Shown here: one piece after another, positions 7,070-34,751 of the stretch
How the letters are laid out: every line of letters begins with the position of its first letter
Numbering within the stretch: the first letter of the stretch is position 1
Assembly: GCA_041653515.1 (NCBI GenBank)
Contig: JBAZFG010000001.1
Span: forward strand, 74,332 to 138,331
Origin: Candidatus Nanoarchaeia archaeon
GTDB lineage: Archaea > Nanobdellota > Nanobdellia > WJKC01
DNA length: 64,000 nucleotides
Direction: 5' to 3'
The notes under the pieces: model-generated
What the model was told of the DNA's origin: nothing
What the model saw: the letters and a program-made list of their open reading frames with translations, nothing else
The model's database searches: none
Made by a program: the position numbers and the translations under genes

Positions 7070-7509
7070 TTTTATTAATTAATACTTGCGCTGATAAGTT
7101 AAGCGAGCACGAATTTGTTAAGCCAATCAAAGCATTAGTTCATGATGAGTGTTTCATTAAGCATTACTCTGAATTAACTAATAATGATTTATTGGTTGCT
7201 GATAAAATAATTATTTGCGGCACAGCGCTAATGGATTTTGATTACCTTAAAGGTGATTGGTCATGGATTAAAGCTTTTAATAAACCAGTGTTGGGCATCT
7301 GCGCCGGCTTCCAAGTGATTGCCCTGGAACTAGGCAAGGAACTAGTTGATAAGAAAATGATTGGGGTCTTTGACCATAATTATTTTGTTACCTCAAAACT
7401 AGTTGAGGGTGGCGTTACTGAATTAAGGCAGGGCTTATTCACTGCTTACGCTTTCCATCCTGAAGTCCTTAACCCTGAGCTTATTTCAGGATTCTGCCGG
7501 TCTCAATAA
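7066..7509 (+). CDS. class I glutamine amidotransferase domain protein (short, 147 aa)
   Basis: GICAGFQ nucleophile-elbow Cys and FHPE His-Glu motif. ATGA 4-nt overlap with the upstream PP-loop gene. Confidence 0.6.
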   Translation: MILLINTCADKLSEHEFVKPIKALVHDECFIKHYSELTNNDLLVADKIIICGTALMDFDYLKGDWSWIKAFNKPVLGICAGFQVIALELGKELVDKKMIGVFDHNYFVTSKLVEGGVTELRQGLFTAYAFHPEVLNPELISGFCRSQ

Positions 7510-8086
7510 ACCAGAGAACCAAATCCAGTTCCGCTAAATTACTTCCTAATAACTTTAATTGTTCTTCAATCAGCAAGTAATTATTCTTGTTTAAGACTTT
7601 TGGCTTCTTTATTATTCCTTCCCGTTCAAGCAGGTCAAGTATGTGAAAATCAATTATTGCCACGTTATTAAAACCAATGTTTCTCATGAAGTGGCTTGCT
7701 TCTTTCATACCTAAACCCTTGACGTTCTTAACTAACCACTCGCGTAATTCTGGTTCATTAAGAGAACTTATTCTTTCTTTTAGTTGTTCTATTACTTTTC
7801 TTGCTCCAATAATGAACTCAGCTCTCTTATTTGGGAACCGGTGGCTTAATTCCTTAAGTCTTAATGATAATTCCTCTTGACTTAATTCAAGGAACCCATT
7901 ACCAATTAACTTTTGAATCCGAATGGACCGTTCAGCATTAAAATTAGCTGTTAATAAACAAAAGCATAATTCATTGAATAATTTCTTACTGCTGGCTTTT
8001 TTAAGAACTTGAAACTCGCTTAAACGCTGTTTAAGTAATCCATCTTGTTTAACTCTCACTTTTTGCATTTTTTCAAGCAGGCTCAT
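7481..8086 (-). CDS. ogg: 8-oxoguanine DNA glycosylase/AP lyase, archaeal Ogg2-type (HhH-GPD)
   Basis: ~200 aa; HhH segment LGMKEASHFMRNIG…DFHI and size match archaeal Ogg. Confidence 0.6.
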   Translation of the reverse strand: MSLLEKMQKVRVKQDGLLKQRLSEFQVLKKASSKKLFNELCFCLLTANFNAERSIRIQKLIGNGFLELSQEELSLRLKELSHRFPNKRAEFIIGARKVIEQLKERISSLNEPELREWLVKNVKGLGMKEASHFMRNIGFNNVAIIDFHILDLLEREGIIKKPKVLNKNNYLLIEEQLKLLGSNLAELDLVLWFIETGRILK

Positions 8087-8640
8087 TTCTTAACCTCAAC
8101 TACTTTTTTGTTTGGGAAGCAGGCTTCGTAGAGTAATGTGCCTGTTAATTTGGGAACTTTGATTTTTTTATTAACCCACTTATTGCCTTTGCGGTAACTC
8201 ATGATTCCTTTGATAAACAGATTATAAGCGCCTTCAACGCAACTGTCATACTTCCGTGATTTTAACAGCAGTTCCCCGGCGAATAATAATTCCTTGTCTT
8301 TCAAGTGCTTGTTAATGAAATCATTTAATTGCTTGGCTGCCTGTTCTTGTTTGTTATAATCATTAGTTATGCTCATCGGCACTGGGTCGCCGCGTGGCGT
8401 AATTATCAACTCGGTTTTTTTTGGTTTCACTTTGCTTAACCAAGCCTTAGTCTCACTTTCAGCTTCCTTTGAAGTGAACACTAATGAGTCATATTCCTTT
8501 AATGCTTTCTTAACGTTGGTTAAGTAACGCTTGTATGAACCCTTAAGGTTTTTATTAATCTTGAAAGTCCATTTATTAGTAAGTTCTTCTTTGAGCAGGT
8601 CACCGCTGTAACCAGGGTGAATCAGGATTAATAGTTTCAT
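8083..8640 (-). CDS. hypothetical protein (185 aa)
   Basis: ORF overlapping ogg by 4 nt. No family recognised. Confidence 0.4.
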   Translation of the reverse strand: MKLLILIHPGYSGDLLKEELTNKWTFKINKNLKGSYKRYLTNVKKALKEYDSLVFTSKEAESETKAWLSKVKPKKTELIITPRGDPVPMSITNDYNKQEQAAKQLNDFINKHLKDKELLFAGELLLKSRKYDSCVEGAYNLFIKGIMSYRKGNKWVNKKIKVPKLTGTLLYEACFPNKKVVEVKK

Positions 8641-8675
8641 AAACTAAAATTAAAAAAATAGGAGTTAAAATAGTT

Positions 8676-9056
8676 TTATGCTTGCCATAAGCCATGAATG
8701 TTGCATAATTCTCGTGCAGTAACTTTGGTTGCTTTAATGCAGAACGTTGCTTCAGGTTTATCGCCTGGTTTTAAATGCTTGCGGTAAACAATGTTGTCAG
8801 CGATTAATTCAATCCACTCAATGTAATGTTTCTCTTCCATTGGGTGCATTACTGAGCCAACCTTAATCTTGTAGCCATCAATGGTTTGCTCAATCACTGG
8901 CACATGCTTTTCAGCCCCAACATCTTTTATTTTCTCTTGTTTTAGTTCCATTGGTTGGCCGCAACAAACCAGTTCGCCAACACCTTTATGAATTACTTCA
9001 ACAATATTCCCGCAGACATTGCACTTATAGACTTGTTTAATTTCAGTCATAATCAA
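8676..9056 (-). CDS. dfx: desulfoferrodoxin (superoxide reductase, 2Fe-SOR)
   Basis: N-terminal CxxC…CC desulforedoxin-like site plus EKHVP / [17 protein letters not shown] centre; ~125 aa. Confidence 0.85.
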
Positions 9057-10076: not shown

Positions 10077-10930
10077 AAATAGGTCGAGTTAAACTTAATA
10101 GTAATTTATTGTTGGCGCCAATGCTTGGTTTCACAAATAGTGCTTTTAGGCACTTATGTCATGATTACGGTGCTGGCTTAGTTACTACTCCGTTAATCAA
10201 TGAGAACGCTGTTCTGAATAACCCTTTAATTATTGACGCGGTTCCGGGCGAAGCGGTTCAATTAATTGGCAGTGACCCAATTAAATTATCAAGAGCAGCT
10301 GTTATTGCCCAGCCTCATTGTGATTTAATTGACCTTAATTTTGGTTGCCCTGCTACTCGCGAAGCCGTTTGTGGGGTTGGTGCTATCCTCTTGAAGAAAC
10401 CTGCTTTGATTAAAAAATTAGTTAGCAGTGTTGTCAAGTCAGTTGATTGCCCAGTGACTGCTAAGATTCGCCTTGGCTTTGATAAGATTAACGTGATTAA
10501 AGTCGCTAAAGCAATTGAGTTTGCTGGCGCGTCAGCCATCACTGTTCACGCCCGGCTTGCTAGTCAGGATTATTCAGTGCCTGCTGACTGGCCTTGGATT
10601 AAGCGAGTTAAGGAATCAATCAGTATCCCTGTTATTGGCAACGGCGACGTTAAAAATCAGGCTGACGCTAATCAGATGATTAGTGAAACTAACTGTGATG
10701 CTGTGATGATTGGCCGGGCTGCTATTGGTAACCCGTTCATCTTTAAAGGGGTTGAGCCATCAGTCAAGGATCGTCGCATTGCTTTTAAGAAATTAGTCAG
10801 TTATGATTGTCCAATGCAGGACTTGAAATTACAAGCACTAAATTTTGTTAAAGGACTGCCCGGTGCTGCGCGAATAAAACAATCAATAATGAAAGCAAGT
10901 AATGAAAAAGAATTAATCAATTTCTTATAA
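10073..10930 (+). CDS. dus: tRNA-dihydrouridine synthase (Dus family)
   Basis: LAPMLGFTNSAFRHL… DLNFGCP … TIM-barrel Dus motifs. Confidence 0.8.
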   Translation: MKIGRVKLNSNLLLAPMLGFTNSAFRHLCHDYGAGLVTTPLINENAVLNNPLIIDAVPGEAVQLIGSDPIKLSRAAVIAQPHCDLIDLNFGCPATREAVCGVGAILLKKPALIKKLVSSVVKSVDCPVTAKIRLGFDKINVIKVAKAIEFAGASAITVHARLASQDYSVPADWPWIKRVKESISIPVIGNGDVKNQADANQMISETNCDAVMIGRAAIGNPFIFKGVEPSVKDRRIAFKKLVSYDCPMQDLKLQALNFVKGLPGAARIKQSIMKASNEKELINFL

Positions 10931-10931
10931 C

Positions 10932-11051
10932 CCCAATTATCCTTGGGCTTGTGTTATCATCCCAAGGCGGGGGACAGATTCCCCCTCCTCTAGGCTACTC
11001 CGCCCCTTTCTGCTTAATTATCCCAATTATCCTTGGGCTCGTGTTATCATC
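10932..11051 (+). repeat. 30-bp direct repeat (10932-10961 / 11022-11051, 1 mismatch) flanking a 60-bp GC-rich hairpin insert that contains the gattccccctc core
   Basis: cccaattatccttgggctYgtgttatcatc occurs twice. The insert carries a GGGGGA-cagat-TCCCCC hairpin. DR1 begins 1 nt after the dus stop; DR2 plus the insert encode the C-terminus of the minus-strand gene. Confidence 0.7.
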
Positions 11052-11888
11052 ATATATTACTGATGGCCCAATCAATACTATTGTTTTTTCAAGCATTACT
11101 TTATCTTTTAATTCTGCTTGCCTTGATAGTAAACCGTTGATGACCATGAATTTTTTTAACTCGCCTTTGAAGAATCTTGATTTAATTATTTCACCACTCA
11201 ATTCTTTTGTTTCTTTTAGCTCGTTACTTAAGATTGAGCCTCGCTCTAAGTCCTTCACATCGCAGTTCTTGAGCGAGACCCCAACCCGCGCGGGCCAATT
11301 AATCTCTTTATAATCAACGTCCATTGATTGCATGCTGTTTAATTGGGCTGGCCTGCCACCAGGCAATAAAACAAATTTATCCTTAACCTTGATTGTCCCG
11401 CCTTTAGTGAAACCAAGCGCTACTGTGCCAACATTCTTGATGTTAAAGAAGTGGTCAATGATGATTAATGGTTCATTTCCATACACTGGCTCAATCATCA
11501 GTAAATCATCTTTTAATTGTTTGATGTCATCATTATTGTTTATTATTCTAAAGTTATAATCAAGGCCAAAACTCTTGACTTGCTCAACTAAGTGTTGCTT
11601 GTCTAGCGGCACAATGAAACAGCCTTTCTTGCCCAGCAAGTCCAATAGTATTATTATCTCGCCAAAGAATTTGTCAACAGCGCTTAACTCAACCACGACG
11701 TAGTCAGTCATGTTAACTGCCTGAATCAGGGTCTTGATTTTTTCCGGAAAACCAATCGGCCTAACAATTGTTAGCACTGAATCAGTTTTCTTATAATGAA
11801 GAAATTCAAGGTCACTAACTGTTGCTTTATTGCCAAGCATTTTAGCTGTCTCGTCACTACCAATAAAACAAGCGCAAACATTTTTCAT
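10995..11888 (-). CDS. EF-Tu/aIF2-gamma-fold protein with degenerate (non-canonical) GTP-binding motifs
   Basis: Domain order is collinear with translational GTPases (G-like domain, beta-barrel domain II GTVALGFTKGGTIKV…, domain III). However, the P-loop GHVDHGKT is replaced by GSDETAKM and no NKxD is present. Confidence 0.5.
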   Translation of the reverse strand: MKNVCACFIGSDETAKMLGNKATVSDLEFLHYKKTDSVLTIVRPIGFPEKIKTLIQAVNMTDYVVVELSAVDKFFGEIIILLDLLGKKGCFIVPLDKQHLVEQVKSFGLDYNFRIINNNDDIKQLKDDLLMIEPVYGNEPLIIIDHFFNIKNVGTVALGFTKGGTIKVKDKFVLLPGGRPAQLNSMQSMDVDYKEINWPARVGVSLKNCDVKDLERGSILSNELKETKELSGEIIKSRFFKGELKKFMVINGLLSRQAELKDKVMLEKTIVLIGPSVIYDDNTSPRIIGIIKQKGAE

Positions 11889-11890
11889 AA

Positions 11891-12895
11891 TTAATTCAAT
11901 AATTCCTTCTTTTTTAATCTATTCTTAGCAAGCCAGTAGAAAGCGTAAGTCAATGGGAATGACAGTGTTAGGGCGAGCCATTCAGGCAGTGAGTTATTAG
12001 CGAATAAGTAAACCCATTTGAGCAGTAATAAATTATGGCTTAAGTAAAGGAATAATGATGATAAGCCTGCTATTGTTAATGCTTTGGTGAATCCTTTCTT
12101 CTTGTTATAAGCCATTAATATTAATGAGAAAGTTACCATACAAGCGCCGATGCCATAAAGAGTTAAGCTCATGTTCTTGCCATAATAATCAATTGGCATT
12201 ACAGTGAAGTTAATCACCAACGAAGCGATTAGTATTATTGAGCTGATTAATAACAATTTATTAACCCTCATTTTTCTCGTTGCCTTGTAGAATAATACTC
12301 CAGCAAACATTAATGGCAGTAAATTATAAACCGAAAACCAACCCCTATAAAGTGCGTTAACAAAAACACTACCCAGCATTAAACTAATATTATTAAGCGG
12401 TGGGTGATAAGGGAATAATTCGCCGAGCGGCTGGATTAACAATAAAAAATGCCTTGTTATTGTCAATAATGGAATGCTTAATAATAATTCATAATCCTTT
12501 GGCTTCCAGCAGAGTATTATTAAAGCTGTTATCATAGCTGATAAACCAATGCCTTGTATTGCTTCATTCCACTCTAAGTAAGTGCTAAAACCCCACATAA
12601 AAGTTGTAAACGGGATACTGATTAGTAAGTACTTGCCGTAAGTCCATAACACTTTCCTGATAACATTAGCTTTAGTGTCTTTTTTTAATTTATTCTTTAT
12701 CATTAAGTAAACGCTCATGCCTGTCACGAAACTAAATAATATTGAAGGGGGCAGTGGCGTTACTGTGTGGATTGCTTCAATAAAGAACGGCGGGTCAGTG
12801 TAAATACTTGAGTAAGCCAGTGAGTCATAGATTTGTATGAAAACCATTATTAGTAATGTTAAGCCCCTAAAACCATCAACGTAATCAACCCTCAA
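11891..12895 (-). CDS. acyltransferase family 3 (OatA-like) integral membrane protein
   Basis: N-terminal RVDYVDGFRGLTLLIMVF signature of acyltransferase_3 and ~10 TM helices. Confidence 0.6.
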   Translation of the reverse strand: MRVDYVDGFRGLTLLIMVFIQIYDSLAYSSIYTDPPFFIEAIHTVTPLPPSILFSFVTGMSVYLMIKNKLKKDTKANVIRKVLWTYGKYLLISIPFTTFMWGFSTYLEWNEAIQGIGLSAMITALIILCWKPKDYELLLSIPLLTITRHFLLLIQPLGELFPYHPPLNNISLMLGSVFVNALYRGWFSVYNLLPLMFAGVLFYKATRKMRVNKLLLISSIILIASLVINFTVMPIDYYGKNMSLTLYGIGACMVTFSLILMAYNKKKGFTKALTIAGLSSLFLYLSHNLLLLKWVYLFANNSLPEWLALTLSFPLTYAFYWLAKNRLKKKELLN

Positions 12896-13560
12896 TTAAC
12901 ATCCCTCACAGTCATTACTTTGGCGCCTGACCCCTTGATTACTTCAAGTACTTGCCTTAACTCGTCTGGTGTTATGTCAATTAATCCTCTAGGATTGTTA
13001 GTCACTCCATGAATAGTGACTGCGACCCATCCATCCTCTTTAAGCCAATCCTTAAGCCAATTAATTCTTTGCTCGAAGCGGTCATGAACAATAATTAACG
13101 CCTTAACATTAAAATCACTTTTATCATTAACTCCTTGTAAGACTAAGCGCGCAGAAGTAAAGTAATCCCTTACTATTGATTCCTTATCAATTCCCTCACC
13201 GTAAGGGTATGCAAAACTATCAGCATTAATTATTCGCTCGCAATCAATTAATTCCTGCCTGAACGCATCATCACTAACACTTGAAGCATTAATATGCGTC
13301 ATTGTATGGCAACCAATCTCATGGCCCCTTGATTGTAAATTAACTATTTGTTCCCAACTCATTAACGCATAACCCTCAAATTCATTGAGCCCTGGGCAGA
13401 TATAAAAAGTGCCTTTGTAATCATATTCATCAAGTATTAATGACGCGTTGTATTGTGATTCAAGCCCGTCATCAAAAGTAATTGAAACAATAGACTCACT
13501 AGGTGGGATTAATAAGACAATTAATAACAAGCCTGTTATTGATGTTAATAATAATTTCAT
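12892..13560 (-). CDS. polysaccharide deacetylase (NodB/CE4) with signal peptide
   Basis: ITFDDGLESQY … HTMTH NodB motifs; 4-nt overlap with the acyltransferase gene. Confidence 0.8.
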   Translation of the reverse strand: MKLLLTSITGLLLIVLLIPPSESIVSITFDDGLESQYNASLILDEYDYKGTFYICPGLNEFEGYALMSWEQIVNLQSRGHEIGCHTMTHINASSVSDDAFRQELIDCERIINADSFAYPYGEGIDKESIVRDYFTSARLVLQGVNDKSDFNVKALIIVHDRFEQRINWLKDWLKEDGWVAVTIHGVTNNPRGLIDITPDELRQVLEVIKGSGAKVMTVRDVN

Positions 13561-13629
13561 TCTTTAGTTTACTCAGATTTTTTGATTAATAAAAGTTGTT
13601 ATAAACAACTATTTCTTATTGTTAATTTA

Positions 13630-15618
13630 ATGATTAATACTATTATTAAGCGTGACGGCACACCAATGCCTTTTGATTCATTAAGGATTACTAACGCAAT
13701 CATTAAAGCCATGAATAGTGTTGGTCGCGTTAATGACTCGCTCGCGCTTAAAGTAACCCGCGACGTTATTAATAAATTAAAAAATAAGTCTAATGTTGAT
13801 GAAGTGCTTGACGTGATTGAGTTAGTGCTTAAAATTAATGATTCCATATCAGCTCAATCATTAAGTCTTTACCGAGCGCGCCGTTCACTGGCTCGTGAAT
13901 TCGCAAAATCAGCAGGCATTAAGGATGACTTAAAGTTAAGCCTTAATTCACTCAAAGTTATTGCTAGCCGTTATTTATTAAGAGATAAGACTGGCAGTAT
14001 AATTGAGTCAACGAGCGAGATGTTCCGCCGGGTCGCCAGGTCAGTCGCTGTTGCTGAAAAACAATATGGCGGTGATGCCCGCGCGTTGGAAGAAGAGTTT
14101 TATAATTTAATGATTAAACTTGAGTTCTTGCCTAATAGCCCAACTATCATGAATGCTGGCACGTCAATTAACCAATTGAGCGCTTGTTATGTCCTGCCAG
14201 TTAATGACTCGCTTGACAGTATTTTCTCAACTTTAAAGGATGCAGTCCTTATTCATCATAGTGGTGGTGGGGTTGGTTTTAATTTCTCTCATCTAAGACC
14301 AAATGGTGATGCTGTTAGCAGTACTAGCGGAGTTGCTTCAGGCCCAGTTAGTTTTATTAGAATTTATGATATGGCGACTAGCATTATTAAGCAAGGTGGC
14401 CGCCGTAGGGGCGCTAATATGGCTGTGCTTAACCATAATCACCCTGATATTATAGAATTCATTAATGCTAAGAAGAATGGTGGGTTCATTAATTTTAATT
14501 TCTCTGTGAGCGTGACTGACTCTTTTATTCGTAAAGTGATTAAAGGGGGTGATTACTGGCTTGTTAATCCAAAGGATAATAGTCATGTTAAGAAAGTTAG
14601 TGCGCAGAAAGTGTTTAATCAATTATGCGCCAACGCTTGGACTAATGGGGAGCCAGGTTTATTATTCATTGATGAGATTAATCATCATCACCCATTAAAA
14701 GAATTGGTTGATTGCACTAACCCTTGCGGTGAACAACCATTATTACCTTATGAGTCATGCAATCTTGGCAGTATTAATTTATCAAAAATGATTGTTAACA
14801 ATGATGTTGATTGGGCGCGGCTTAATCGCGTGACTCGTCTGGGTGTTAGGTTCCTTGATGATGTGTTAACAATTAATGAATTCCCTGTTAAGCTTGTGAA
14901 AGATTTAACAATGGCTAACCGCAAGATTGGTCTTGGGGTAATGGGTTTTGCTGATTTATTAATCAAGTTAGGCATACCTTATGATTCTAAGGAATCGCTT
15001 AAGTTAGCAGGTCAGTTAATGAAATTCATTAATGATAAAGCTCATGATGAGTCAATGCGTCTTGGGTTAAAGCGCGGCTCGTTTACTAATTTTAAGAAAA
15101 GCAGGTTATCCCGCAAGTATAAAGCTATGCGCAATGCTACCCTGACTACTATTGCCCCTACTGGTAGTATTAGTTTGATGGCTGATTGCAGTTCAAGCAT
15201 TGAACCATTGTTTGCAGTAGCGTTTTATCATTCAGTGCTTGATGGTGATAAGTTATTAAATGTTAATCATTACTTTGAGAATGAATTAGTTAAGCAGGGC
15301 TTGTACTCTAATAAATTAATCAATAATGTTGTTAATAATAAGATTGAATTACCAGCTCATATTAAGCGTGTTTTTAGGACTGCTTTAGATATTAAGCCTG
15401 AGTGGCACGTTCGGTTGCAAGCCATGTTCCAGAAATATGTTGATAACGCTGTGTCAAAAACAGTTAACTTACCTCATGAAGCAACAATTAATGATGTGAT
15501 GAAAGTATTCCTTCTTGCTTACAAGCTTAATTGTAAAGGCATAACTGTTTATCGGTATGGTAGTCGTGATAATCAAGTACTAACTATTGGTTCCTGCCCG
15601 ACTGGTTCTTGTGATTAA
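13630..15618 (+). CDS. nrdJ: adenosylcobalamin-dependent ribonucleotide reductase, class II (NrdJ) with N-terminal ATP-cone
   Basis: ATP-cone IIKRDGTPMPFD…; active-site CGEQPLLPYESCNLGSINL; C-terminal CPTGSCD. The ORF track starts at 13582, but the in-frame ATG at 13630 (MINTIIKRDG) gives the typical ATP-cone N-terminus. Confidence 0.85.
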   Translation: MINTIIKRDGTPMPFDSLRITNAIIKAMNSVGRVNDSLALKVTRDVINKLKNKSNVDEVLDVIELVLKINDSISAQSLSLYRARRSLAREFAKSAGIKDDLKLSLNSLKVIASRYLLRDKTGSIIESTSEMFRRVARSVAVAEKQYGGDARALEEEFYNLMIKLEFLPNSPTIMNAGTSINQLSACYVLPVNDSLDSIFSTLKDAVLIHHSGGGVGFNFSHLRPNGDAVSSTSGVASGPVSFIRIYDMATSIIKQGGRRRGANMAVLNHNHPDIIEFINAKKNGGFINFNFSVSVTDSFIRKVIKGGDYWLVNPKDNSHVKKVSAQKVFNQLCANAWTNGEPGLLFIDEINHHHPLKELVDCTNPCGEQPLLPYESCNLGSINLSKMIVNNDVDWARLNRVTRLGVRFLDDVLTINEFPVKLVKDLTMANRKIGLGVMGFADLLIKLGIPYDSKESLKLAGQLMKFINDKAHDESMRLGLKRGSFTNFKKSRLSRKYKAMRNATLTTIAPTGSISLMADCSSSIEPLFAVAFYHSVLDGDKLLNVNHYFENELVKQGLYSNKLINNVVNNKIELPAHIKRVFRTALDIKPEWHVRLQAMFQKYVDNAVSKTVNLPHEATINDVMKVFLLAYKLNCKGITVYRYGSRDNQVLTIGSCPTGSCD

Positions 15619-28698: not shown

Positions 28699-28769
28699 GC
28701 GTTCGTAGTCTAGTGGTAGGATCTCAGCCTTCCAAGCTGATGACCTGGGTTCGAATCCCAGCGAGCGCA
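28699..28769 (+). tRNA. tRNA-Gly (anticodon UCC)
   Basis: Cloverleaf read by eye: acceptor GCGTTCG/CGAGCGC, anticodon loop CUUCCAA, T-arm GGGTTCGAATCCC; no encoded CCA. Confidence 0.85.
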
Positions 28770-33893: not shown

Positions 33894-34586
33894 ATGGATT
33901 TAATTGAATTATTGAAGGATAAGAAGGCTATCTTGTTTGATTGGGATGGAGTCTTGTTTAATTCATTGCCTGCTCATTTGAAGCACGCTAAGCATTGCTG
34001 TGAGGCGCGCGGCATTATTAATCACCCTGTTTTTGAGTCAATGAAGGCTTATCGTGAGTTCCTGAGTGATTGCCCGGGCCATTTCTCTGAGATTTATAAA
34101 AAACTAGGCATTGATTACATGCTTAATCATGAGCAAATAACTAATGATTTCATTAAGTTCATGAATGATTCTTCTCTTGAATTATTTGACGGCGCTTATG
34201 AATTGCTTTGTGATTTAAAAGAGCATTACTTGGTTGGCTTGGTTACTTCATCATTCCGCGAGAGTGTTATCCCGCGTTTGCCTTATGGTTTTAATTTTCA
34301 TAGTGAAGTTTTTGCTGGCGAGGCAGCGTCAAAACCAGCGCCTAACGGCATCATTAAGTGCTTGGCTGAGCTTGACGTTAAACCTGAGGAAGCGGTTTAC
34401 GTTGGTGACATGATTAGTGATGCCCAAGCAGCTAGTGCTGCAGGGGTTAGTTTCATTGGTGTGACGTATGGTTATAATAATCATCAAGCACTGGCAGCCC
34501 AACCGCACTTATTAATTGTTGACAGTGTCGAAACGCTTAAAAAGACCCTGCTTACTTATAGTAGATTGTCAGCGACCATAACTTAA
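33894..34586 (+). CDS. HAD-superfamily hydrolase
   Basis: Motif I LFDWDGVLFNS and motif IV GDMISD. The 3' end overlaps the 5S rRNA. Confidence 0.75.
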   Translation: MDLIELLKDKKAILFDWDGVLFNSLPAHLKHAKHCCEARGIINHPVFESMKAYREFLSDCPGHFSEIYKKLGIDYMLNHEQITNDFIKFMNDSSLELFDGAYELLCDLKEHYLVGLVTSSFRESVIPRLPYGFNFHSEVFAGEAASKPAPNGIIKCLAELDVKPEEAVYVGDMISDAQAASAAGVSFIGVTYGYNNHQALAAQPHLLIVDSVETLKKTLLTYSRLSATIT

Positions 34587-34682
34587 GGGGTACCACCCGT
34601 TCTCATCCCGAACACGGAAGTTAAGCCTTTAAGTGTTATAACCTGTACTGTGTAATACATGGGAACGTTATAAGTTGCCGAC
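34568..34682 (+). rRNA. 5S ribosomal RNA (stand-alone)
   Basis: CCACCCGTTCTCATCCCGAACACGGAAGTTAAGC matches the universal 5S helix II/III-loop C region. Terminal helix GTCAGCGAC/GTTGCCGAC; ~115 nt. Confidence 0.8.
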
Positions 34683-34751
34683 ATCTATTTTTTTTTAAAT
34701 TACACTAGTGCTAACTAAGAACTTTTATAAAATAGTACATTTTACTATAGA

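Follow-up and report, generated by a model that had tools for sequence, protein, structure and literature searches.

Gene Location and Domain Organisation

The window analysed here is a 64-kb stretch of DNA from a Candidatus Nanoarchaeia archaeon. The locus of interest (10995–11888, minus strand) is occupied by a single ORF with an ATG start, 297 aa and a stop codon. Based on this ORF, the best PDB match (MM1309) and an AF2 model searched with Foldseek, it is the complete CDS of a divergent aSelBL, i.e., a SelB-like pseudo-GTPase. The gene for an HGSNAT-like membrane acyltransferase ends 2 nt before its start. No other aSelBL paralogue, tRNA-Sec or other Sec component was found within the window, and an Rfam scan of the whole window returned only a tRNA-Gly and a 5S rRNA; the hairpin that follows the aSelBL gene gave no match.

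The protein consists of three domains, all features described below lying on the minus strand. According to DSSP of the model, domain 1 (residues 1–138; 11475–11888) has a G-domain fold in which the nucleotide-binding loops have been pared away. Domain 2 (residues 139–225; 11214–11474) is a beta-barrel with a predicted pocket for the aminoacyl/CCA end and shows the highest conservation within the protein; it gave a weak match to Pfam GTP_EFTU_D2, and NCBIfam selB/EF-1alpha models also matched the protein. Domain 3 (residues 226–297; 10995–11213), delimited by the model and Foldseek, is a second beta-barrel, after which the ORF stops with no domain IV or SECIS-binding extension. The degenerate N-terminal motifs were kept in 11 orthologues, and an independent assembly (L010) carried an identical copy of the gene; the altered G motifs therefore do not stem from faulty sequencing or assembly.

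The original prediction described such proteins as rarely annotated, which was accurate only for part of the family: Nanoarchaeia members are labelled "hypothetical protein" by NCBI, whereas members in Thermoplasmatota and Methanomicrobiales are named "EF-Tu/IF-2/RF-3 family GTPase" or, by JGI, "selenocysteine-specific translation elongation factor". Annotation pipelines overlook aSelBL under the first of these labels and misname it under the last.

Family Membership and Fold

The aSelBL family was first described by Atkinson, Hauryliuk & Tenson (2011, BMC Evol Biol 11:22; PMC3037878). It is counted among the trGTPases, as the sole translational-GTPase paralogue gained by archaea after their split from eukaryotes (PMC4342817), and would represent an old paralogue, within archaea, of SelB, the elongation factor for selenocysteine. 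The window protein is a member of the divergent clade of this already described family and not a new kind of protein. In a phmmer search against PDB sequences, the best match was MM1309 (E = 3.2e-24), followed by aSelB (8.4e-9) and aEF1A (2e-8). A family profile gave the same order (MM1309 217.7 bits, aSelB 126, aEF1A 77, eEFSec 69; best E = 2.4e-63). At E ≤ 1e-30, relatives formed 216 clusters (50% identity) of uniform length (ca. 290–330 aa). Taxa with relatives included Nitrososphaeria, Thermoplasmata, Methanomicrobiales, Methanotrichaceae, Bathyarchaeota and Altarchaeum. These taxa include the main aSelBL lineages previously reported, namely Thaumarchaeota, Thermoplasmatales, Methanomicrobiales and Methanosaeta (PMC3037878), which supports aSelBL membership. 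The same study found aSelBL in ARMAN lineages, with Nanoarchaeum equitans lacking it, and reported a ferrochelatase gene placed directly upstream, as we observed for a Thermoplasmatales member. In an NJ tree, aSelBLs were separate from the aSelB outgroup, the tree being fragment-based with bootstrap values of < 50% at deep nodes.

The AF2 model (pLDDT 94.8, pTM 0.92) shows a G domain of topology b1-a1-b2-b3-a2-b4-a3-b5-a4-b6-a5 followed by the two beta-barrels; in domain 1, DSSP assigned b1 to residues 2–9, a1 to 12–18, b5 to 89–94, a4 to 99–105, b6 to 112–116 and a5 to 119–130. Foldseek aligned the model along the entire length of 3WNB, SelB, EF1A, EF-Tu and aIF2-gamma, the top match being 3WNB (MM1309; TMq 0.83, 24% identity). 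The Foldseek order agreed with the profile scores in placing aSelB and aSelBL nearer to the window protein than EF1A, EF-Tu or aIF2-gamma. The predicted collinearity with translational GTPases across domains I–III was thus confirmed by phmmer, profile, model and full-length structural alignments, far beyond chance, and the structure search recovered similarity over the entire G domain. TM scores were 0.75–0.83 against GTP-form or closed structures and 0.43–0.48 against open GDP-form EF-Tu/EF1A, although AF2 training data may favour the closed form.

The closest characterised relative, M. mazei MM1309 ("EF-Pyl" or aEF-X; PDB 3WNB, 3WNC, 3WND, 2ELF), is a conservative aSelBL that protects Cys-tRNACys from deacylation and binds GTP (Kd 0.43 µM) with no GTPase activity (PMC4329189). 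The earlier statement that the function is unknown still applies to the divergent clade; a crystal structure and Cys-tRNACys binding data have been published for this conservative member of the family. MM1309 is the best match to the window protein in both sequence and fold, and the two share the closed three-domain arrangement and a conserved aminoacyl pocket. In contrast, MM1309 is 350 aa long and has a P-loop (with Arg for Lys), a TRSD G4 motif, the G5 Thr and GTP binding, whereas the window protein lacks these motifs. Archaeal SelB (M. maripaludis, PDB 4AC9/4ACB), from the parent family, is the second-best match in profile and fold and has the same D-H…R pocket, but it also has canonical G1–G5, a longer switch I and a C-terminal domain IV, and it needs the Sec machinery. 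The aEF1A, EF-Tu and aIF2-gamma proteins share the EF1-family fold and recognisable domain 2 motifs but possess true GTPase switches, with profile scores of ≤ 77 bits.

Loss of the Nucleotide-Binding Site

The positions that correspond in structure to G1 (GxxxxGK[ST]), G3 (DxxG), G4 (NKxD) and G5 (SAx) carry none of these motifs. When the window protein was scanned with regular expressions, neither Walker A ([GA]xxxxG[KR][ST]) nor [NT][KR]xD was found, and a single DxxG (D83-LLG) turned up, within helix alpha3 rather than after beta3. Pfam GTP_EFTU (PF00009) gave no match even at E ≤ 10. The absence is a property of the family: Walker A was found in 0 of 270 relatives, and canonical G motifs were likewise missing from all 270 orthologues and wider relatives.

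All seven nucleotide contacts of MM1309 that could be mapped (R14, T15, S16, D46, R101, D103 and T136) are substituted or deleted in the window protein (S11, D12, E13, R43, K97, a deletion and N118, the N118 position itself being deleted in most members). At the G1 position (11838–11861), residues 10–17 read GSDETAKM, as originally predicted, and S11/D12/E13 replace MM1309 R14/T15/S16; the sequence is kept as GS[DN]ET in orthologues, and in the model beta1 and alpha1 are linked by two residues only (G10, S11). The G4 position (residues 94–98; 11595–11609) reads PLDKQ, with deletion of a 9-residue segment that includes the guanine-specificity Asp103 of MM1309, a gap shared by 57/60 family members. 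At the G5 position (IINNN, residues 115–119; 11532–11546), a segment of ca. 14–18 residues that carries MM1309 T136 is deleted. Correspondingly, MM1309 showed insertions of 9 residues at G4 and 18 residues at G5 relative to the family profile, and the beta5-alpha4 and beta6-alpha5 connections in the model comprise four and two residues, respectively. Divergent aSelBLs are defined by a 4–5-aa P-loop deletion and a 10–14-aa deletion of the G5-bearing segment (PMC3037878); the window protein has both, the latter in agreement with the deletion at its G5 position. As the P-loop, G4 and G5 loops are cut to minimal beta-alpha turns, the sequence suggests that the window protein is most likely unable to bind guanine nucleotides or to work as a GTPase switch.

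Atkinson et al. left open the possibility of a cryptic NTPase (PMC3037878), in which a non-canonical site would bind and hydrolyse nucleotide, for example with the conserved GKKGT-like strand standing in for the phosphate loop. The family motif KKGTxSD is indeed strongly conserved and superficially resembles GK[ST], and strong purifying selection on domain 1 would also fit. However, the motif reads NKAT in the window protein and is modelled as a beta-strand (residues 20–24), the equivalent MM1309 segment is strand beta2, which lies far from the nucleotide, bridges to domain 2 and lines the aminoacyl pocket (PMC4329189), and deletion has removed G4 and G5, the loops that recognise guanine. We therefore consider cryptic NTPase activity very unlikely.

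Switch Remnants and the Aminoacyl Pocket

Alignment and model identified the switch I equivalent as NKATVSD (residues 20–26; 11811–11831), corresponding to the family "KKGTxSD" strand, in which D26, T23 and S25 were present in 59, 44 and 38 of 60 sequences, respectively. The counterpart of this strand in aSelB was the RGITI motif at about chain residue 57. G10 and K21-A-T are 11 residues apart, and MM1309 shows identical spacing between G13 and K23-G-T. Switch I is therefore shortened relative to aSelB, as aSelBL requires: the published traits are a switch I deletion of ca. 15 aa relative to true aSelB, G2 as KGTxx, G3 as (E/D)Pxxx and a non-conserved catalytic His (PMC3037878). In the window protein, G2 reads NKATV and G3 reads RPIGF, with Pro retained and the acidic residue replaced by Arg. 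The G3/switch II equivalent (RPIGFP, residues 43–48; 11745–11762) aligned R43, F47 and P48 with MM1309 D46, Y50 and P51; thus, the Mg-binding Asp is replaced by R43 and the catalytic His position by F47 (Tyr or Phe in the family), while P48 is kept (Pro in 54/60). At the lid, F29 aligned with MM1309 M32 (position 67) and L30 replaces Y33 (position 68), so that the Phe/Tyr lid trait is present through position 67 only. The MM1309 pocket residues G25, S27 and M32 correspond to A22, V24 and F29.

The pocket in domain 2 is nearly invariant. The segment DHFF (residues 145–148; 11445–11456) contains the pocket Asp/His equivalent to aSelB D191/H192 and MM1309 D178/H179, plus F181. The pocket arginine R201 (11286–11288) corresponds to aSelB R247 and MM1309 R234, and R216 (11241–11243) corresponds to MM1309 R249 and EF-Tu R300. 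The R216 equivalent binds the tRNA 5'-phosphate, and in MM1309 this residue (R249) forms a salt bridge with D29 (PMC4329189). D145, F148 and Q187 were conserved in 60/60 sequences, R201 and V156 in 59/60 and L158 in 58/60; position 216 was basic in 56/60 (R 51, K 5). H146 was found in 35/60, and several relatives from Nanoarchaeia carry D, Q or T instead. The interdomain residues T26/S28/D29/P51/R249 of MM1309 correspond to T23/S25/D26/P48/R216. Replacement or deletion of all nucleotide contacts alongside this pocket supports the original proposal of a pseudo-GTPase that retains tRNA- or ribosome-binding domains.

Of the two ligands named in that proposal, the ribosome alone could in principle suffice, with domain 2 in the factor-binding site of the ribosome and the protein acting, without tRNA, as a regulator or hibernation-type blocker. 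Conservation of the domain 2 patches that touch 16S rRNA in EF-Tu (PMC3037878) and the strongest constraint falling on domain 2 are in keeping with such a factor. The invariant residues (D145, F148, Q187, R201, R216), however, line the A76 pocket and the 5'-phosphate site and would be needless for ribosome binding alone, and the His contacting the sarcin-ricin loop has been lost, which makes this explanation unlikely.

Purifying Selection and Proposed Function

Purifying selection acts strongly on the degenerate G domain. Compared with an orthologue at 85% identity, pN/pS values were 0.081/0.72 for domain 1, 0.048/0.75 for residues 1–50 and 0.139/0.66 for domain 3, and domain 2 (pN 0.037) was the most tightly constrained of the three domains. 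These values ruled out a pseudogene. More broadly, loss of the G motifs might indicate a decaying relic of SelB or EF1A, and the JGI label would imply a genuine SelB. Both ideas are extremely improbable, given the intact ORF, the high-confidence model, the strong selection and the uniform lengths across the clusters; neither frameshifted or truncated orthologues nor dN/dS near 1 were observed, and the protein has neither the domain IV nor the G motifs of SelB, and the 64-kb window contains neither tRNA-Sec nor any further Sec component. Constraint falls on the tRNA pocket and the interdomain contacts, not on the nucleotide site, and the nucleotide-free aSelBL persists under this selection even in very small DPANN genomes.

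Taken together, the three-domain protein with trimmed nucleotide loops probably acts as a nucleotide-independent aminoacyl-tRNA binder locked in a closed shape, which we regard as the most likely function. The switch I/II remnants (D26, S25/T23, P48 and R216) could serve as a conserved interdomain "glue" that holds the protein permanently in a closed, "GTP-like" conformation, and it is in this conformation that the pocket receiving the aminoacyl-A76 and 5' ends of a tRNA would be formed. Residue conservation and the relative MM1309 point to tRNA binding; since MM1309 itself binds GTP, nucleotide-independent binding would be an extrapolation from it. The leading candidate ligand is Cys-tRNACys, as measured for MM1309. 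Once bound, the labile ester or thiol of the aminoacyl-tRNA might be protected, or the tRNA might be handed on or delivered without GTP hydrolysis.

Gene Neighbourhood

The original prediction also called for examination of neighbourhood conservation, which did not hold up. A block comprising RNR/CobA and Dus/Na-Ca exchanger/SOR/Ogg is common to relatives at ≥ 53% identity, gone at 44% and absent in other phyla. A conserved functional neighbourhood was accordingly rejected; as the block dissolves with divergence, it reads as inherited synteny rather than an operon. No support for a translation-related neighbourhood was seen in this lineage. Oxidative-stress genes (SOR, rubrerythrin and Ogg) occur near aSelBL.

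DPANN genomes are very small and densely packed. The aSelBL gene lies directly behind the membrane acyltransferase gene in three lineages: besides the abutment in the window, the acyltransferase orthologue abuts aSelBL with a 4-nt overlap in L006 and a 6-nt gap in L003. A polysaccharide deacetylase gene is also upstream in this tightly packed group. Such packing would fit a supply of aminoacyl-tRNA outside translation, for example for envelope or lipid aminoacylation. However, the acyltransferase-aSelBL pair is absent in L001, L004, L091 and L092 and in other phyla, abutting genes are weak evidence in genomes of this density, and neither neighbour belongs to a known aminoacyl-tRNA transferase family. 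An extra-translational role is thus quite improbable, and aminoacyl-tRNA binding by a closed, nucleotide-free protein is still the preferred reading.

Nanoarchaeia Subclade

The window protein shares with the divergent aSelBLs described in 2011 (PMC3037878) a length of ca. 300 aa, three domains with no C-terminal SECIS domain, the P-loop and G5-segment deletions, KGT and (E/D)P-type remnants at G2/G3, loss of the catalytic His and retention of the pocket Asp/His/Arg. It differs in belonging to a Nanoarchaeia (DPANN) subclade that was unsampled at that time, and in the changes found there: KKGT to NKAT, E/D to R/K before Pro, replacement of the lid Tyr and a 4-residue insertion at G5. What is new here is modest, namely this well-supported subclade (NJ bootstrap 96.5%; < 50% for the deep placement of the clade), whose members carry the "hypothetical protein" label. 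Our result aids annotation and supports a published hypothesis; it opens no new question.

A signature of the subclade is [RK]P at the G3 position. R43 would face the acidic D12/E13 at the old phosphate site, and a salt bridge could fill the former nucleotide site. R/K at position 43 was accompanied by an acidic residue at 12/13 in 17/19 sequences, but this match carries no weight, since every class often has an acidic residue at 12/13 (197/284). The pocket wall is also remodelled in the subclade (A22, V24, F29 and L30, with H146 variable). Because Leu replaces the lid Tyr (MM1309 Y33) and A22, V24 and F29 replace G25, S27 and M32, Cys specificity is uncertain in this clade. Arg in place of the Mg-binding acid, the remodelled pocket and the oxidative-stress and acyltransferase neighbours could together reflect a shift in aminoacyl specificity or a function peculiar to DPANN archaea, in envelope chemistry or redox protection, which we consider rather unlikely.

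G Motifs and Family Assignment

The gene at 10995–11888 (minus strand) is a single ORF with an ATG start, encoding 297 aa. Its P-loop is replaced by GSDETAKM, exactly as residues 10–17 had originally been read, and the NKxD element is likewise absent, as a motif scan of the protein found neither [NT][KR]xD nor Walker A. The sole DxxG (D83-LLG) lies within helix alpha3 and not after beta3. Pfam yielded only a GTP_EFTU_D2 match below threshold, with no match to the GTP_EFTU G-domain even at E ≤ 10, and the NCBIfam selB, EF-1alpha and EF-Tu models matched in domain 2 only. Canonical G motifs in orthologues would imply a sequence error in this gene; none was found, GxxxxG[KR][ST] being absent from the first 60 residues in all 270 retrieved relatives. 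The degenerate N-terminus, CF-IGS[DN]ETxKLLGNKATxSD, is common to 11 orthologues (44%–85% identical, plus one at 31%–33%), and the gene recurs unchanged in an independent assembly (Logan SRR18595300). A sequence error was thus excluded.

An exhaustive HMMER search with an orthologue profile retrieved 2614 relatives at E ≤ 1e-3, of which 216 reached E ≤ 1e-30, counted as representatives of 50%-identity clusters; among the best matches listed, nearly all were 290–330 aa long with alignments starting at residue 1. Named members came from Methanoregula, Methanospirillum, Methanomassiliicoccales, Thermoplasmatales, Acidiplasma and Thermoplasmatota, and a GTDB genome scan added Nitrososphaeria, Bathyarchaeota, Methanotrichaceae and Altarchaeum. 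These taxa include the main lineages of the archaeal SelB-like (aSelBL) family of Atkinson, Hauryliuk and Tenson 2011 (PMC3037878), a SelB paralogue lacking domain IV. Its G domain is disrupted by a 4–5-aa P-loop deletion, with a further 10–14-aa deletion in a “divergent” clade; KGTxx remains at G2 and (E/D)Pxxx at G3, the catalytic His is lost, and the D-H...R aminoacyl pocket and ribosome-contact patches are conserved (PMC3037878). That study already describes for aSelBL what the original prediction noticed here. The family profile scored Methanosarcina mazei MM1309 (“EF-Pyl”/aEF-X, a conservative aSelBL) at 217.7 bits, aSelB at 126 and aEF1A at 77. At a Thermoplasmatales locus (L070, 4067–5852), ferrochelatase and the start of the aSelBL homologue share 8 nt, the same hemH linkage as reported for Picrophilus and Ferroplasma (PMC3037878). 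Given these scores, the ferrochelatase context and the absence of GxxxxG[KR][ST], the window protein is a divergent member of this known family.

In a neighbour-joining tree (41 sequences, 200 bootstraps), the protein fell into a 12-sequence clade (bootstrap 96.5%) with two named Candidatus Nanoarchaeia proteins and Ca. Tiddalikarchaeum anstoanum (Tiddalikarchaeales, Nanoarchaeia); support was confined to shallower nodes, and the deeper branching order was not recovered. Clade signatures were KKGT to NKAT and (E/D)P to [RK]P. Its DPANN members are labelled “hypothetical” or “uncharacterised” at NCBI and SelB at JGI. In 2011, aSelBL was reported from ARMAN lineages and not from Nanoarchaeum equitans (PMC3037878); the Nanoarchaeia subclade therefore extends the known family and is not a new kind.

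Predicted Fold and Nucleotide Site

The proposed collinearity with translational GTPases across domains I–III was borne out, the whole protein being collinear with EF1-family factors. Against PDB sequences, phmmer matched MM1309 (3WNB/C/D; 3.2e-24) in two stretches covering domains 1 and 2, followed by aSelB (8.4e-9) and aEF1A (2e-8). An AlphaFold2 model built from 46 homologues (mean pLDDT 94.8, pTM 0.92) had the complete G-domain topology b1-a1-b2-b3-a2-b4-a3-b5-a4-b6-a5, then two beta-barrels. Foldseek ranked 3WNB first in the PDB (E 2.7e-24, TMq 0.83), then archaeal, bacterial and human SelB, then aEF1A, EF-Tu and aIF2-gamma, confirming GTPase-domain similarity. The model resembled closed, GTP-type structures (TM 0.75–0.83), whereas open GDP-form EF-Tu/EF1A reached only 0.43–0.48.

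For residue-level comparison, MM1309 residues 13–337 were rebuilt from the HMMER alignment and aligned with 60 diverse family members; the numbering agreed with every residue within that span named in the crystal-structure paper. MM1309 contacts nucleotide through R14, T15, S16, D46, R101, D103 and T136 (PMC4329189). In the window protein, R14 (equivalent to the P-loop Lys) becomes S11, T15 (Mg2+ ligand) D12, S16 (P-loop) E13, D46 (G3, Mg2+) R43 and R101 (G4) K97; D103 (guanine specificity) is deleted, with a gap in 57/60 members, and T136 (G5) becomes N118, with a gap in 46/60. In the model, the beta1-alpha1, beta6-alpha5 and beta5-alpha4 links measure 2, 2 and 4 residues; all three nucleotide-pocket loops are gone.

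tRNA Pocket, Selection and Possible Function

Among the predicted aminoacyl/CCA-end and 5′-phosphate contacts, D145, F148 and Q187 occur in all 60 family members, R201, V156 and D26 in 59, and L158 in 58. Position 216 is R or K in 56/60 and position 23 is T or S in 52/60; the pocket His (H146) occurs in 35/60. By alignment, these contacts are retained. The MM1309 switch I/II equivalents T26, S28, D29 and P51 make no nucleotide contact and bridge to domains 2 and 3 (e.g., D29 to R249, S28 to H179; PMC4329189); their counterparts T23, S25, D26 and P48, together with R216, rank with the best-conserved positions in the 60 members.

Compared with the 85%-identical orthologue in a related locus (L006), synonymous sites were near saturation (pS 0.65–0.75) and non-synonymous differences were few, which excludes decay of the gene. 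pN was 0.081 in domain 1 (0.048 in residues 1–50), 0.037 in domain 2 and 0.139 in domain 3; the “dead” G domain is therefore constrained at least as strongly as domain 3. The protein is under strong purifying selection.

The original proposal of a pseudo-GTPase retaining tRNA- or ribosome-binding domains is supported: the EF-Tu/SelB fold is intact, the nucleotide site removed and the tRNA-end pocket conserved. The former switch elements most likely lock the protein in the closed conformation, and it would bind an aminoacyl-tRNA without nucleotide control. MM1309 has no detectable GTPase activity and protects Cys-tRNACys from deacylation, extending its half-life from 80 to 300 min (PMC4329189). 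Divergent forms might guard a labile aminoacyl-tRNA, deliver it non-enzymatically to the ribosome or supply another pathway. Specificity for Cys is less certain in the Nanoarchaeia clade owing to differences at several pocket-wall positions: G25, S27, M32 and Y33 of MM1309 correspond to A22, V24, F29 and L30, and several Nanoarchaeia relatives carry D, Q or T in place of the pocket His. A literature search found no later functional work on aSelBL; an uncultivated DPANN orthologue makes its function no more testable and would not surprise a specialist.

Genomic Context

The aSelBL gene is the third and last of a tightly packed co-directional trio. A polysaccharide deacetylase gene (12892–13560, minus) overlaps by 4 nt that of an HGSNAT/Acyl_transf_3-like membrane protein (11891–12895, minus), and the latter gene stops 2 nt short of the aSelBL start. 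The related loci L006 and L003 have the acyltransferase–aSelBL junction too (−4 to +6 nt); no acyltransferase orthologue abuts the gene in L001, L004, L091 or L092. Divergent from the trio is a gene for a 678-aa ribonucleotide reductase with an ATP-cone (13582–15618, plus); a CobA/CobO/BtuR-family gene (PF02572) adjoins the reductase at related loci. Neighbourhood conservation held in relatives at least 53% identical, which share a larger block: class II RNR and CobA lie to one side of aSelBL, and to the other are Dus, a Na/Ca exchanger, desulfoferrodoxin, rubrerythrin and Ogg. The block had disappeared by 44% identity and was also missing from other phyla. In these phyla, unrelated genes surround aSelBL, and an aminoacyl-tRNA synthetase turns up now and then (GluRS in Methanomicrobiales; in Bathyarchaeota, a class II enzyme two genes away), in agreement with the mostly unconserved aSelBL context reported previously (PMC3037878). 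We treat the shared block as inherited synteny and not as functional.

Oxidative-damage genes (Ogg, desulfoferrodoxin/SOR, rubrerythrin) lie within about 5 kb of aSelBL in several Nanoarchaeia loci (window 7481–9056, minus; L001, L003, L004, L091, L092). They are noted because a role as “guardian against oxidation” was proposed for aSelBL. In L092, Ogg is still nearby with the rest of the synteny lost. The association may be residual synteny.

Rfam/ARAGORN matches within the 64-kb window were limited to tRNA-Gly(TCC) (28699–28769, plus) and 5S rRNA (34568–34683, plus). A 35-nt direct repeat (10927–10961 and 11017–11051; 91% identical, 90-nt spacing) flanks the hairpin GGGGGACAGATTCCCCC (10969–10985). 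One copy codes for the last aSelBL residues (DDNTSPRIIGI); the other lies just beyond the hairpin, inside the 64-nt gap before the convergent tRNA-dihydrouridine synthase (Dus) gene. The duplication is also present in the independent assembly (L010), and L006 has the hairpin, lacks the duplication and stops the ORF 6 codons earlier. This pattern suggests that a short stretch around the shared terminator-like hairpin was duplicated locally.
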